A stretch of DNA of 64,000 nucleotides. Source: Candidatus Nanosynbacter sp. GTDB taxonomy: Bacteria; Patescibacteriota; Saccharimonadia; Saccharimonadales; Saccharimonadaceae. The position numbers and the translations under genes are program-made. The DNA is taken from contig JABZKB010000002.1 in assembly GCA_015257505.1 (NCBI GenBank), positions 52,085 to 116,084 on the forward strand, in the 5' to 3' direction. Positions 18,964 through 23,481 of this stretch are shown piece by piece (the first letter of the stretch is position 1; each line of letters begins with the position of its first letter). The notes beneath the pieces were generated by a model. The model did not search any database. It saw nothing but the letters and a program-made list of their open reading frames with translations, and was not told where the DNA came from.

Positions 18964-19218
18964 TTATGCAAGACGGAGGTGCCAAGAGAGATCTGTGGCG
19001 TTGAACGACAATTGGTAATTGTTGCGTCCTGCAATAACGTCGAAGATGTGGATGGCGGTGTTGCCAATGAAGCGAATATGGGTTTGAAGAAGTTCTGAAA
19101 CCTCAAATTCCTCACCACTACGGGTCTTAAAGTTGAGAGGCTGACAAGGGGTCATTTCATACCCGAAGAGAGCCATGACTTCGACGCGTTCCTGATTATT
19201 GTTAATATTATTTTTCAT
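18964..19218 (-). CDS. Hypothetical 84-aa protein
   Basis: Strong SD AAAGGAG 6 nt upstream of the ATG. No homology recognised. Confidence 0.5.
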   Translation of the reverse strand: MKNNINNNQERVEVMALFGYEMTPCQPLNFKTRSGEEFEVSELLQTHIRFIGNTAIHIFDVIAGRNNYQLSFNATDLSWHLRLA

Positions 19219-19383
19219 AAGTAACTCCTTTAAAACTATTTTTGGGAGTCATTTATGCGAGCCTGATTTATTGGCTCCTGGCTAAAAGTATAAATGACGA
19301 TACTTAAAGCTTTTGAATTTTCTCATTGCCAGGGACCGAAGTATGGCAAGATGGTTATATTATAATGCAAGTGTTTAAAATAG

Positions 19384-19420
19384 CAAAATAAAAAAAGTGG
19401 GGAGTCTGGTTAGGACTCCC
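19384..19420 (-). terminator. Rho-independent terminator for the 60-aa ORF (GGGGAGTC-loop-GACTCCCC followed by T8 on the minus strand)
   Basis: 8-bp GC-rich stem at 19398-19420, loop tggttag. On the minus strand it is followed by acttttttttattttg. Confidence 0.7.
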
Positions 19421-19513
19421 CGGTGTTGAGGCTACTGGAAAATGGAAGCTCACTGGTGTGAGAAAACAACAAAGGGGAAAACTTTGGAAGTTTAGCCAGT
19501 GATAACTTTGTCT

Positions 19514-19696
19514 TTACCAGTTCGAACGGTGCCAACCCTGCGCCTCGGCGCCTCTGATAATCTCATCCTTTTCGTACGAACTTATGTTCGGAAAACGCTC
19601 AGGATGGTTAACGAGTGCTTCTGCCATGGTCTGATAGCTGTCATGGTCACTGTCGTAACTGTTGTTAGTTACATAATCGGTGAAGACATGTCTCAT
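19514..19696 (-). CDS. Hypothetical 60-aa acidic protein (MRHVFTDYVTNNSYDSDHDSYQTMAEALVNHPERF...)
   Basis: Start placed at the second in-frame ATG (19694-19696). That ATG has a near-consensus SD AAAGGGGGTGA with a 5-nt spacer, and a strong terminator follows. The ORF track starts at GTG 19705. Confidence 0.5.
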   Translation of the reverse strand: MRHVFTDYVTNNSYDSDHDSYQTMAEALVNHPERFPNISSYEKDEIIRGAEAQGWHRSNW

Positions 19697-19824
19697 ACAA
19701 TTCACCCCCTTTCTGTATGAATTCTGTGCTTCTCTAGCTGTTCTAGCTGTCTGTGAAGATACGTCTCATACAATTCACCCCCTTTCTGTATGAAATTTTT
19801 TGCTTCTCTAGCTGTTCTAGCTGT
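19681..19824. repeat. Tandem direct duplication, 2 x ~72 bp; each copy carries the SD+ATG module
   Basis: Copy 1 is 19681-19750 and copy 2 is 19751-19824, about 95% identical: tgaaga(catg/tacg)tctcatacaattcaccccctttctgtatgaa...tgcttctctagctgttctagctgt. Confidence 0.85.
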
Positions 19825-19949
19825 TTAGCCTCTAAAAGTGCATCGGACTCACCCCTTTCTAATATACCGACGGTATGATTTTCAGACGTTTATGGGGAAA
19901 TATAAACGCGTGGCAGCAGTTATCTATGTTCCCAAACGTCTGTGACACT

Positions 19950-19977
19950 ATAATAACATAAATATATATTATGTCAA
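19950..19977 (-). promoter_or_regulatory. Sigma70-type promoter abutting the helicase stop codon: TTGACA (19972-19977), 13 nt, extended -10 TGtTATTAT (-10 at 19950-19955)
   Basis: Minus-strand reading is TTGACAtaatatatatttaTGtTATTATagtgtcaca. The predicted TSS near 19943 heads the structured leader and uORF series. Confidence 0.5.
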
Positions 19978-22900
19978 CTATTTATTTTGGTAACGGTCGA
20001 CAAGTGTTTTGCAGAATTCCTTGATGTCACTCAGTTTTGGCTCTTCTAGGGCAATAGCGTTAGTTGGTGAGTCGGAGTCTAAGAAATCAAGTGAGGTGAT
20101 TTGGTAATAAACAGCATGGATGAGCTCCTCGAAGGTGACTGGCATATTTGCAACTACATCTTCGGTCAGTTCAATACTGTGTATCTTCCCTGTTTCGCTA
20201 TCAATAGTCTCGCGACGGTTGGGGGCAGTGAAAAGTAGGTTCATTGAACGAACGGTGTAGTCATGATACGTCTTTGAGAGTTTAAGGAGCATGCGATAGA
20301 ACAAGAGCTGGAATTGATAAATGAAGAGCGATTCCTTATTTTGCCAGGTATCCTTATCTGAGATAGTGCTGGTTTTGAAGTCATAGAGGTCAATAATTTT
20401 ATGTTCTTCGTCAACATTAATATGGTCGATCTTACCGGTAACCGGGATGCCTTCAAAATTGAGTTTCTCTTTACTAAAATCAACTTCAGCTTTGGCTCCT
20501 GGGGCACGAAGGATGTGTTCAAAGGCATCAATAGCGAGTGGTAGTTCATCCCTGCCGCGTTCAATTAGAGTCTCAATGTCTTCTTCGAGTAGATCCTGGT
20601 CTTTTACTTCATTGAGGTAAAAATTGATGGCCTCTTCTTTGGCAATATTATTGTTGGTAATCTCTTCAAAGACGTGGTGGATTAGGTTTCCATAAACTAA
20701 ACTAATCGAGTCTGAGGTATCTTGTGGGGCATGAAGAATGCTCTGCTGATAAAAGGCGAGCGGGCCACTGTAAGTAAGACGAATAAATGACGAGATATGG
20801 GAAGCAGATAGGCGGAAATCTTGTACTTTTTCAAGAAGAATTGGCTTTAATTTCTCAGATGGATTGAGTAATTTTATTAACCAGGTGCGACGAATAGCTG
20901 AGGCTTTTTCAGCGTCAGTAAGTCGGTCATTATGCTCGGAAACTCGTCCATTCGGAATAAATGGAGAGCTTAGGTAATCTCCAGCTTCGTTTTGAATAAC
21001 TTTTTCGTCTAGGAATGAGAGTGGTTTAGATTCTTTACTAGCTTCGTCGGCGTATTTTGAACTCGTGATAGTGAGAGTCTTGGCAGCCCTAGTGATAGCT
21101 ACGAAGAGCAGGCGTTTTTTACCATCAGGTGTGTTGCGAGATTCGCCGATAAAGTCGAGATTAAGAGGTAACGGAATACTAGGTGGACGGTTTGCACTAT
21201 CCCAGCCCGATTGATTGGCACTAATAAGGAAAACATGTTTAAACTCTAGACCTTTAGATTTGTGTGCCGTCATTAAACTAACGGAATCATCAGAGTCTTT
21301 ATAAAAAGTTTGTTCAGTAATTGGCGTATTGGTTTCAGTGAAGTCGTTGAGTAATTGAATTAAGTCATGAAGGCGGAGTTTACTTTTTTCGGTACGAGAA
21401 AGTATGGCGTTCCGCAAGAGATTAAGTCGATTATAGAGGTCAAAAGTGGCTTTTGAATACAGATCTTTGGTGTAGAAACTAAGAAATGGCGAGGTAAAGG
21501 AGATATTTTGGTTGTTGATTTTTAGTTCGATTGGAGTAACGCCTGTGAGAATATCGAGGAAAAATTCAAGTGGAAGAGAAAAGGATTTTTTGGCAAGTTC
21601 CGAGAAAAAGGCGGCAAGATTAGCATAGAGTGGGTTATCGTGATAGGATTGAAGAATTTCCAGTGCGGTGCGCTTGTTACGTTCAATGGACTGGATAGAC
21701 ATGATCATATCATCGCTAGGGATATCCCAGAAATCAAAAGATAGGATTTCAGGAAGCATGAAAGCTGGGTTCTCCCCATCAGCGAGCATGGCGATAAACC
21801 TACAGAGTGTTGTCAGTTCATAAATTTGCTGATTTTCTAAAATATTTTCGGTACGTTCGTAGGAAATATTAATTTCAGGATATTTTCTGAGATATGGGAT
21901 AAGCGGAGTGGCTAATGCGTGTTTTGGGAAAAGGATGCCGATATCAGATGGTTTGGCGCCAGCCTGGATGAGTTGATGGACTCTTTTTGCAACCCAGTAA
22001 TATTCGGCATCTTGATTTATAAATTGGTGTCTCTCAATAAAACTTTTTTGAGTAAAATTGTTGTTCAGAGATTTAGAATCTGTAACATCTTCTGCTGAAT
22101 AAATATTTTGTTCAAAGGTTGAATCTTCGGGAGAAGCTTTAAGAATTTCATTATTTCTGATTGCGATTAACTCGTTCTTCAGCTCTGTCGTAATGGTATT
22201 TTCGACATTTAAACTACGTTGCATAGTTTCGTTTTTAATAAAGCTTTCTTCCAGCTGATCTGCAATTTTGCGCGAGAATTGAAGGATTTCAGTAGTTGAG
22301 CGATAATTATCAGTGAGGACAATAACTTTTGCGTCAAAATGGTTTTTAAAATGAATTAGACTTGATGCACGGGCGCCTTGGAATTCATAGATCGATTGAT
22401 CATCATCACCTACTGCCATAACTGCAGGCGACTCCTGTTCGTCTGCAATGAGTTCTAGAAGACGGGTCTGTGATGGATTGGTATCCTGGTATTCATCTAC
22501 CATGATATAGAGGTAATTTTGAGCGATTTTACGTCGGAAATCGACATCTTGTTCAAGAAAATTGATTGGAGCTTCAATCATGTCATTAAAATCATAGAGA
22601 TCATGCTCAGTCAAATAATTTTGATAGAATTCGTATAATTCGGCTATTTCGCTGAGGCGCTTATTACTGGCCGTATCTGAAAATTTATAATTCCCAGCTT
22701 GGTCTTTAGAGAAATATTTCTTAATAAATGTGTTCAGGGGGCTGACTGACGGTTTTTCGCTATTCTGTTCTACTTCAAGAAGTGCGTAAATTTTCTCATA
22801 GAGTATAGTTGTAATTGAATAAACATTTTGTATAATTGTTGAATCAGATTTTAATTCACCCAGTTTCTGTAATAGTGGAATATAGACTGTTTCAGTGAGG

Positions 22901-23481
22901 ATGTTAAAAACATCTTTACCCGCAGCACGAGCGGGGAGGTTTTGTAAAATTGGCGACAATACTAGTTCAAGTGTCTTAACCTCAGACTCATTTTTGGCTG
23001 CGATTTGTTTCATCTCTTCTGGTGATAGTTTGGCAACTTTAAACTTGCTTATAGCTTTGAGTAGTTCTTTTGGATCACGAACATTTTTGATGATGTAAGA
23101 AGTCGGAAGATTATTTTGAAGCTCGCTAATAATCTTAGTTTGTACAACTTCTTCAATTGGATTTGAAAAAACACGTTGCGGTTTGTCTGAATAATGACTG
23201 CAAAGGCTAAGAATTTTTTGACCAAAACTATGAAAAGTCATGATGTCGATCTGGTCAGCAGTTTGGCCAATCATTGACCTTAGACGATCTTTCATATTCT
23301 TTGCGCCAGCATCAGTGAAGGTAATACAGAGAATCATACTGGGGTCAGTGTCGGTGTTTTTTAGGATGTATTCAACTTTTTTTGAAAGTAATTGAGTCTT
23401 TCCTGTGCCAGGTCCCGCCAACACTAGAAGTGGTCCTTCGAGATATTCAACGGCGGCTTGTTGTTTGGCGTTTAGTGGCAT
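19978..23481 (-). CDS. UvrD/PcrA-type SF1 helicase fused to a C-terminal RecB/AddA-type PD-(D/E)XK nuclease domain
   Basis: 1167 aa. N-terminal Walker A LVLAGPGTGKTQ and helicase motifs (DEYQDTNPSQ, GDDDQSIYEFQGA). C-terminal nuclease motif GKIDHINVDEEHKIIDLYDFKTS. No addB/recC partner is present in the window. Confidence 0.8.
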   Translation of the reverse strand: MPLNAKQQAAVEYLEGPLLVLAGPGTGKTQLLSKKVEYILKNTDTDPSMILCITFTDAGAKNMKDRLRSMIGQTADQIDIMTFHSFGQKILSLCSHYSDKPQRVFSNPIEEVVQTKIISELQNNLPTSYIIKNVRDPKELLKAISKFKVAKLSPEEMKQIAAKNESEVKTLELVLSPILQNLPARAAGKDVFNILTETVYIPLLQKLGELKSDSTIIQNVYSITTILYEKIYALLEVEQNSEKPSVSPLNTFIKKYFSKDQAGNYKFSDTASNKRLSEIAELYEFYQNYLTEHDLYDFNDMIEAPINFLEQDVDFRRKIAQNYLYIMVDEYQDTNPSQTRLLELIADEQESPAVMAVGDDDQSIYEFQGARASSLIHFKNHFDAKVIVLTDNYRSTTEILQFSRKIADQLEESFIKNETMQRSLNVENTITTELKNELIAIRNNEILKASPEDSTFEQNIYSAEDVTDSKSLNNNFTQKSFIERHQFINQDAEYYWVAKRVHQLIQAGAKPSDIGILFPKHALATPLIPYLRKYPEINISYERTENILENQQIYELTTLCRFIAMLADGENPAFMLPEILSFDFWDIPSDDMIMSIQSIERNKRTALEILQSYHDNPLYANLAAFFSELAKKSFSLPLEFFLDILTGVTPIELKINNQNISFTSPFLSFYTKDLYSKATFDLYNRLNLLRNAILSRTEKSKLRLHDLIQLLNDFTETNTPITEQTFYKDSDDSVSLMTAHKSKGLEFKHVFLISANQSGWDSANRPPSIPLPLNLDFIGESRNTPDGKKRLLFVAITRAAKTLTITSSKYADEASKESKPLSFLDEKVIQNEAGDYLSSPFIPNGRVSEHNDRLTDAEKASAIRRTWLIKLLNPSEKLKPILLEKVQDFRLSASHISSFIRLTYSGPLAFYQQSILHAPQDTSDSISLVYGNLIHHVFEEITNNNIAKEEAINFYLNEVKDQDLLEEDIETLIERGRDELPLAIDAFEHILRAPGAKAEVDFSKEKLNFEGIPVTGKIDHINVDEEHKIIDLYDFKTSTISDKDTWQNKESLFIYQFQLLFYRMLLKLSKTYHDYTVRSMNLLFTAPNRRETIDSETGKIHSIELTEDVVANMPVTFEELIHAVYYQITSLDFLDSDSPTNAIALEEPKLSDIKEFCKTLVDRYQNK

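Follow-up and report, generated by a model that had tools for sequence, protein, structure and literature searches.

A strongly Shine-Dalgarno-driven, structured leader with strain-variable start modules upstream of a 60-aa orphan gene in oral Saccharibacteria

Hairpins at start codons are classic translational operators, as in the MS2 replicase operator, and 5′ stabiliser leaders have been described in the form of the STAB-SD of Bacillus thuringiensis cry3A and the aprE leader of Bacillus subtilis. The term STAB-SD, in which SD stands for Shine-Dalgarno, occurs in PMC5737220 and PMC12970973. In the B. subtilis hbs mRNA, a small abundant protein is encoded behind a structured 5′ untranslated region (UTR) with an SD of 10 Watson-Crick and 2 G-U pairs (Braun, Durand and Condon 2017, PMC5737220), and the initiating ribosome at this strong SD, together with the 5′ structures, protects the transcript against RNase J1 and RNase Y (PMC5737220). 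Here we describe a locus of similar make-up, consisting of a gene for a 60-amino-acid (aa) acidic orphan protein and its leader, in a 64-kb stretch of Candidatus Nanosynbacter sp. DNA (contig JABZKB010000002.1), hereafter called the window. All features of the locus are read on the minus strand, and window coordinates are used throughout. An earlier note, made from the letters of the stretch, had drawn attention to the locus and had taken its upstream open reading frames (uORFs) for a translational-attenuation or leader-peptide device.

With a probability of roughly one half, we read the locus as a monocistronic mRNA for the orphan protein that is built for stability and strong initiation and carries a slippage-prone leader. 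Its own near-consensus, extended −10 promoter would drive the 60-aa gene, and a hairpin at the extreme 5′ end would protect the mRNA from 5′-end-dependent decay. An exceptionally long complementarity to the 16S tail (AAAGGGGGUGA), present in one or more copies, would keep a ribosome docked at the start, with initiation taking place at a 7-bp hairpin in whose loop the SD is exposed and whose weak 3′ arm contains the AUG. The iterated modules would stem from tandem duplication of the start hairpin, the uORFs being by-products and at most extra ribosome-docking sites, and the expected outcome would be a high, stable output of the small protein. High expression, stabilisation and pairing of the G-rich loop with the ribosome are what we infer.

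This reading is favoured because the set of elements matches that of the hbs mRNA. Both are monocistronic small-protein mRNAs with a long, structured 5′ UTR bearing 5′ hairpins and an exceptionally strong SD, and they also agree in their long 3′ UTR and strong terminator. Unlike hbs, with which it has no sequence or protein homology, the locus described here places the SD in the loop of a covarying hairpin and the AUG in the stem, in a module that is tandemly duplicated, and the known pairing of the hbs 5′ and 3′ UTRs is not shown here (no better than chance). With the STAB-SD leaders it shares SD-like boxes in the 5′ UTR that are complementary to 16S rRNA and do not start a conserved ORF (the module-1 box in group B and GAGGAGGTGATCC in group D, as defined below), combined with a 5′-proximal stem-loop at the predicted transcript start; the box in the window's lineage differs in preceding an AUG and a 3-codon ORF, and that of group B in being partly paired within a hairpin, P3.

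Related loci were compared in groups: A is the window's own clade, B a sister lineage, and C, D (locus L023) and E are further lineages. The features of the locus in the window are:

19950 to 19977, minus strand: promoter, with the −35 box TTGACA (19977-19972), TG (19958-19957) and the −10 box TATTAT (19955-19950)
19883 to 19942, minus strand: 5′-terminal stem-loop, CAGACGUUUGGGAA ... UUCCCCAUAAACGUCUG
19864 to 19876, minus strand: short hairpin ATACCG-T-CGGTAT, read from the sequence
19832 to 19858, minus strand: module 1, with the SD-like box AAAGGGGTGA (19858-19849) and uORF1, ATG CAC TTT TAG (19843-19832)
19750 to 19823, minus strand: extra, strain-variable tandem unit, with 9-nucleotide (nt) repeats CAGCTAGAA/CAGCTAGAG and a hairpin copy (19793-19766) that includes an SD (19786-19774)
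19769 to 19743, minus strand: uORF2, MRRIFTDS-stop, within the extra tandem unit
19693 to 19749, minus strand: ancestral unit with the start-site hairpin, made of the 5′ arm UCAUACA (19720-19714), a loop with GAAAGGGGGUGAA (19713-19701) and the 3′ arm UGUAUGA (19699-19693)
19696 to 19514, minus strand: gene of the 60-aa acidic orphan protein, stop codon (19516-19514) included
19422 to 19513, minus strand: 3′ UTR, conserved within group A (nucleotide diversity, pi, ~0.01) and containing UUUUCCCCUUUG
19389 to 19421, minus strand: intrinsic terminator, an 8-bp stem (6 G-C) at 19421-19399 followed by a T7 run

Start-site hairpin, promoter and encoded protein

Comparison of related genomes shows that the start-site hairpin is a conserved, covarying element with the SD in its loop and the AUG in its stem. 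In the window, the main AUG (19696-19694) lies within the 3′ arm and the SD AAAGGGGGUGA within the loop, and throughout groups A to C the hairpin has 7-10 bp, a 13-17-nt loop with GAAAGGGGGUGAA, and the AUG in its 3′ arm. RNAalifold and pair counts show compensatory exchanges of C-G and U-A (9 vs 4 sequences), A-U and G-C (7 vs 6) and U-A and A-U (10 vs 2); two pairs covary firmly, and four show any both-sided change. Paired cells amount to 96.9%, compared with 15-51% for slid controls, and none of 500 shuffles reached the observed pairing or covariation score. In group E, unrelated stems (GUGAAA/UUUCAC, AUGGAA/UUCCAU, UAUGGA/UCCAUA) surround the same GGGGGU loop directly before the AUG, and the five loop guanines (G5) are invariant across groups A, B, C and E.

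The strength of the SD sets the locus apart within the window. The motif GAAAGGGGGTGAA has only two occurrences in the 64 kb, both at this locus. Provided that the 16S tail is canonical, the SD forms 11 contiguous pairs with it, including 1 G-U, and the SD:anti-SD energy is −21.3 kcal/mol for modules 2 and 3 and −17.3 kcal/mol for module 1, compared with −17.0 kcal/mol for the best of 37 other window genes. As a separate observation, many long ORFs of the window have TATAAT 6-9 nt before the ATG and no SD (e.g. starts near 2783 (+) and 16548 (+), and several on the minus strand); the sequence suggests widespread leaderless mRNAs in this genome.

Diversity within group A points to constraint on the untranslated parts of the transcript. 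In the leader pi is 0.00-0.025, similar to the low value of the 3′ UTR, and in both, diversity is several times lower than at synonymous sites in the flanking genes (synonymous polymorphism, pS, of 0.145 for the helicase gene upstream). Because the coding sequence (CDS) that lies between the two UTRs reaches a pi of 0.09, their low diversity is taken as local constraint and not as the trace of a sweep. Judged from the alignments, the elements conserved across lineages are the promoter, the 5′-terminal hairpin, the start-site hairpin and the ORF. No single consensus fold could be obtained for the entire leader of lineages A, B and C taken together, the start hairpin alone being common. A GAGAA(G) motif shows no variation among the group A, B and C leaders (alignment A3; 19801-19806 and 19728-19733 on the minus strand in the window); it is one arm of helix P4 in group B and has no obvious partner in group A.

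The earlier note had placed a near-consensus promoter immediately past the stop codon of a helicase-nuclease ORF, and this holds: TTGACA starts on the base directly after the TAG (19980-19978), and with a 16-nt spacer the element matches the consensus at 11 of 12 positions and has the TG in addition. By itself, a promoter scan was not significant (5 promoter-like sites vs 3.3 expected). By alignment, however, the promoter is conserved across every lineage examined. Groups A to C have a TTGAC(A/T) −35 box and a TGn-extended −10 box, abutting or overlapping the helicase stop; group D has the same −35 box in the same place without the TG; and in group E a promoter of this type stands in another context. 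The overlap or abutment of the −35 box of the small gene with the helicase stop codon was thus seen in groups A to D. Transcription is predicted to start at ~19943, and an independent transcription unit with a conserved strong promoter is supported.

The stable stem that had been expected to open the transcript was recovered by folding (19942-19883), with a free energy of −20.5 kcal/mol and a z-score of −4.5, and none of 200 shuffles was as stable. Group A variants of this stem-loop fall in the loop or bulge or give G-U pairs, one terminal pair being broken in L009 and L010, and in groups A, B, C and E a hairpin begins at nt 1-2 of the predicted transcript, with a different sequence in each lineage. 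The short hairpin that follows is present as the earlier note had read it, but taken alone it does not stand out from random expectation (its surroundings have z = −0.19), and an alternative CGUCGG/CCGAUG pairing would put SD box 1 in a loop. The terminator is likewise present but not, as had been stated, at the end of the ORF; it sits 92 nt after the stop codon, and its T run is T7. An hbs-like pairing of UUUUCCCCUUUG in the 3′ UTR with the SD boxes was considered and rejected, since 29% of shuffled UTRs and 8.7% of genomic windows do as well as its −20 kcal/mol; the minimum free energy fold of the whole transcript draws this pairing, yet with an energy no better than chance.

The encoded protein is small and acidic, as predicted (isoelectric point 5.07, net charge −5), and hydrophilic (grand average of hydropathy, GRAVY, −1.09). 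Neither the device nor the protein had been recognised in the earlier note, and database searches agree: Pfam, NCBIfam, PADLOC and PHROGs gave no match for the protein, and Rfam gave none for the leader even at E ≤ 10 over positions 19300-20050, its only matches in the whole window being two tRNAs. Homologues of the protein, which were to be looked for in related genomes, were found in several oral Saccharibacteria lineages. A hidden Markov model search of 1.8 billion representative proteins, followed by a profile search, returned a family of ~22 clusters of 59-60-aa proteins (one of 74 aa), whose members extend down to 37-55% identity with the window protein without frame changes. All come from oral-sample assemblies of Candidatus Saccharibacteria (TM7), one of which is labelled G3 HMT-351, and the window itself belongs to an oral, G3/HMT-351-like TM7 genome. 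The still more diverged homologues of group E lie upstream of an 84-aa gene in other metagenomes. The profile search also brought up large YadA-like, HEAT and STAND proteins; these were discounted as spurious, being repeat proteins matched in several stretches.

Within group A, the ratio of nonsynonymous to synonymous polymorphism (pN/pS) of the 60-aa gene is 0.45 at a pS of 0.143, compared with 0.07 for both the 3′ end of the helicase gene (pS 0.145) and the 84-aa gene. AlphaFold, run on a 17-sequence alignment, gave a model of a beta-hairpin followed by two helices with a predicted local distance difference test score (pLDDT) of 88.5, for which no structural match was found. Given this pN/pS, the frame-intact homologues at 37-55% identity and the confident model, the ORF is a real, coding, fast-evolving and lineage-restricted gene. 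A small ORF of a type I toxin-antitoxin system was considered and rejected, as the GRAVY, the net charge and the soluble-type model are not those of a hydrophobic, membrane-active peptide. In public gene calls the length of this gene is given as 60, 79 or 86 aa, according to the way in which the repeats are read. Pseudogene-like states were also observed: K48 is changed to a stop in L011 (6001-6183), the ORF is disrupted in L120 (~1980-2200), a noisy assembly, and in L034 (1228-4744) the helicase is split into ORFs of 780 and 404 aa. The states in L011, L120 and L034 may be real or assembly errors.

Duplicated start modules and competing explanations

The three SD-ATG modules that had been described are all present, with uORF1 at 19843-19832, uORF2 at 19769-19743 and the ATG of the 60-aa gene at 19696. 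Tandem Repeats Finder reports a period of 73 with 2.4 copies at 19683-19860. Modules 2 and 3 do lie in a tandem duplication, as the earlier note had said, but the two copies (73 and 72 nt, with 5 mismatches and 1 indel) are 92% and not about 95% identical. Each unit is composed of CAGCTAGAA-type repeats, the SD hairpin, the ATG and 7 codons. The suspected variation in copy number between strains was found in the 27 complete group A leaders that were aligned: full 73-nt units number one in 19 leaders, two in 7 and three in 1. L043 and L046 have a single unit, although their protein differs from that of the window by only 2 residues, and the peptide encoded by the extra unit varies as well (MRRIFTDS, MRQVFNDS, MRHVFNDS and MRRVFTDS, each followed by a stop). 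Since both the number of units and the peptide vary, uORF2 is best regarded as a by-product of slippage or unequal exchange and not as a conserved element. The same stretch of the leader also varies by 9-nt and 14-nt repeats (L006, L009, L041).

Module 1 is present in all group A leaders. Its counterpart in group C consists of a weak SD followed by ATG CAC CTC TGA, and in group B the box GAAAGG(G/T)GGTGAG is kept without a conserved AUG or stop, forming the 3′ arm of the covarying hairpin P3 (CUUGCCC-AAGAAAGG-GGGUGAG). Group D has three strong SD-like boxes, one of which, GAGGAGGTGATCC, is without an ATG, and group E, with a leader of only ~67 nt, has no upstream box. Going by these alignments, module 1 arose long ago as a copy of the start module and has since degenerated, its coding content not being conserved. 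In addition, a further variable tandem repeat of this intergenic region, with a ~22-nt unit (ATGCCTCACATCTTCCATTTTT-like), was noticed past the terminator of the group E small gene, once in L060 (~2240-2300) and three times in each of L070 (~1375-1480) and L072 (~2195-2290).

Several points weigh against the favoured reading of a stable, strongly initiating mRNA. Where transcription starts, how abundant the mRNA is and how long it lasts are inferred, and the SD energies and pair counts assume a canonical 16S 3′ tail, GAUCACCUCCUUUCU. The fold of the whole leader is not more stable than shuffled sequence (z = −0.96). An over-long SD can slow ribosome clearance, so high output is not certain, and with the nonsense codon in L011 and the disruption in L120 an abundant, important protein is not guaranteed either. 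The five-helix covarying leader of group B exceeds what a stabiliser needs. Furthermore, the loop is always GGGGG and never the GGAGG of other genes here, which a plain SD role leaves unexplained; an invariant G5 where GGAGG would serve equally hints at another ligand.

This last point keeps alive an unlikely alternative, namely that the hairpin, with the G5 in its loop and the AUG in its stem, is a translational operator bound by a trans-acting repressor or activator, such as the 60-aa protein or another RNA-binding factor, and that the extra copies are decoys that tune strains. The hairpin covaries while the G5 loop stays invariant in groups A, B, C and E, the rest of the genome uses GGAGG, and the same 11-nt box recurs within the leader, all of which would suit an operator. 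Like the MS2 replicase operator, it is a short conserved hairpin with the AUG in its 3′ arm beside the SD, but here no binding protein is predicted and the loop itself is a near-perfect SD. As the loop is nearly a perfect complement of the canonical 16S 3′ tail, the ribosome alone explains it; moreover, searches with the 60-aa protein returned neither an RNA-binding fold nor an RNA-binding family, and a regulon is not indicated, since within the 64-kb window the motif is confined to this locus. Distinctly less probable is a wider scenario in which the start hairpin with its invariant G5 would serve as an operator or ribosome trap and the duplication would vary copy number as a contingency mechanism, tuning small-protein output per strain, with the protein perhaps acting in the epibiont-host or epibiont-phage relationship.

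That the leader senses a signal, as a riboswitch-like element or thermosensor with the start hairpin as expression platform, is very unlikely. The leader is far more conserved than synonymous sites, and in group B RNAalifold finds five helices with 9 compensatory pairs, besides an upstream SD-like box and a C-rich partner that could pair alternatively. Beyond the start hairpin, however, the leader architecture is not common to groups A, B, C and E, which makes a conserved aptamer unlikely; the leader of group E measures only ~67 nt, and no Rfam family matches. No riboswitch-type aptamer core common to all representatives was found, the start hairpin alone being shared by A, B and C. A lineage-specific sensor may exist in group B, where the five covarying helices occur. 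Among the five helices of the group B leader (~228 nt; alignment A4 of L022, L024, L026, L033, L034, L037 and L040) are a long-range helix, CGAGAAG...CUUCUCG, that closes a ~60-nt AU-rich loop, and a hairpin that sequesters the upstream SD-like box.

Attenuation by the uORFs, in which translation of or stalling on MHF-stop and MRRIFTDS-stop would control access to the main start, was the device proposed in the earlier note, and we now hold it to be highly improbable. Both uORFs have excellent SDs at proper spacing, and the mini-ORF ATG CAC YTY stop is common to groups A and C. As in the ermC, cat, trp and his attenuators, short ORFs with good SDs lie upstream in a structured leader; in contrast to these systems, there is no conserved leader peptide and no alternative pairing coupled to a uORF, and the uORFs derive from a polymorphic duplication of the start of the gene itself. 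Module 2, with its variable peptide, is a strain-specific duplication that is absent from 19 of the 27 close relatives, the very outcome that the earlier note had set against its own proposal, and uORF1 is without AUG and stop in group B and absent in group E. With its stop 47 nt upstream of the main AUG, uORF2 ends ~21 nt short of the main hairpin and stays clear of it; no mutually exclusive structures link the uORFs to that hairpin, no alternative pairing that would couple uORF translation to the main start was found, each unit folding alone, and no terminator was found inside the leader. Attenuation is already largely refuted by these comparative data. What stands of the proposal is a leader with a functional, translation-related role; the uORF attenuator does not.

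Least probable of all is a transcript that acts mainly as a regulatory RNA (a dual-function small RNA or an anti-SD sponge) with a secondary ORF, which would fit the non-coding parts being more conserved than the CDS within group A and the several 16S-complementary boxes per transcript, but not a protein that is conserved across lineages where the UTR sequences are not, has a pN/pS below 1 and yields a confident AlphaFold model.

Genomic neighbourhood and the adjacent 84-aa gene

The neighbourhood is core and syntenic, comprising comEC, an RNA U5-methyltransferase gene, the helicase-nuclease gene, the 60-aa gene, the 84-aa gene, dus, a GT4 glycosyltransferase gene, smpB, an exo/endo-phosphatase gene and ldh. 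The helicase-nuclease (19978-23481, minus strand; 1167 aa, UvrD and PD-(D/E)XK) is AddA- or RecB-like and without an adjacent AddB-like partner. In L087 (2029-2268) and L089 (1980-2219), an unrelated gene for a 79-aa Cys-rich protein with CxxC motifs, under its own promoter, takes the place between the helicase-nuclease gene and the 84-aa gene; different small genes thus occupy the same slot in different lineages. A functional link to the helicase-nuclease was therefore rejected and the adjacency considered incidental, since the group E small gene has no helicase upstream and other lineages fill the slot with this unrelated gene.

Other contexts were examined and set aside. A mobile-element origin found no support in blastn searches of phage and plasmid collections, which gave no match, and neither ARAGORN nor Rfam found a tmRNA or other known RNA near smpB. 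As for a defence system, the helicase matches GajB/UvrD models generically, the small proteins match nothing in PADLOC, and the locus is core and syntenic.

The gene that adjoins the 60-aa gene has a structured leader of its own:

18964 to 19218, minus strand: 84-aa ORF, annotated as hypothetical only
19219 to 19352, minus strand: structured 5′ UTR of the 84-aa gene, also present in L041-L119

The 84-aa protein forms more than 487 clusters across Saccharibacteria, the best 120 being at least 63% identical. Its motif ERVEVMALFGY.MTPCQPL is invariant, and Pfam, NCBIfam, PADLOC and the PDB gave no match. Nowhere in the locus is conservation higher than in this gene (pi 0.000-0.007, pS 0.05), and its leader is conserved in all 24 aligned Saccharibacteria loci, that is, in every sampled lineage carrying the gene. 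Among these 24 sequences, helices P1 and P2 of the leader have 4-5 compensatory pairs each, and a GAGCC/GGCUC hairpin is invariant. A further helix pairs GACUCC with the SD GGAGUC, and the invariant P2 loop GUCAUUUAU complements AUAAAUGAC, just upstream of the anti-SD. The layout of these elements is riboswitch-like or pseudoknot-like; Rfam had no match at E ≤ 10 for this leader. It may be a more valuable finding than the 60-aa locus.

Saccharibacteria are epibionts with reduced genomes, whose control of gene expression is very poorly understood. The biological importance of the 60-aa protein is uncertain, because some strains carry a pseudogene. For annotation, the locus advises caution, as the tandem duplication of a start module yields uORFs and variable gene calls (60, 79 and 86 aa). 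As far as comparative data reach, it is a lineage-specific case of a structured, strongly SD-driven small-protein leader, in which a strain-variable duplication of the start module is unusual, and it provides a comparatively validated, non-leaderless and strongly SD-driven mRNA in an organism in which many genes look leaderless.

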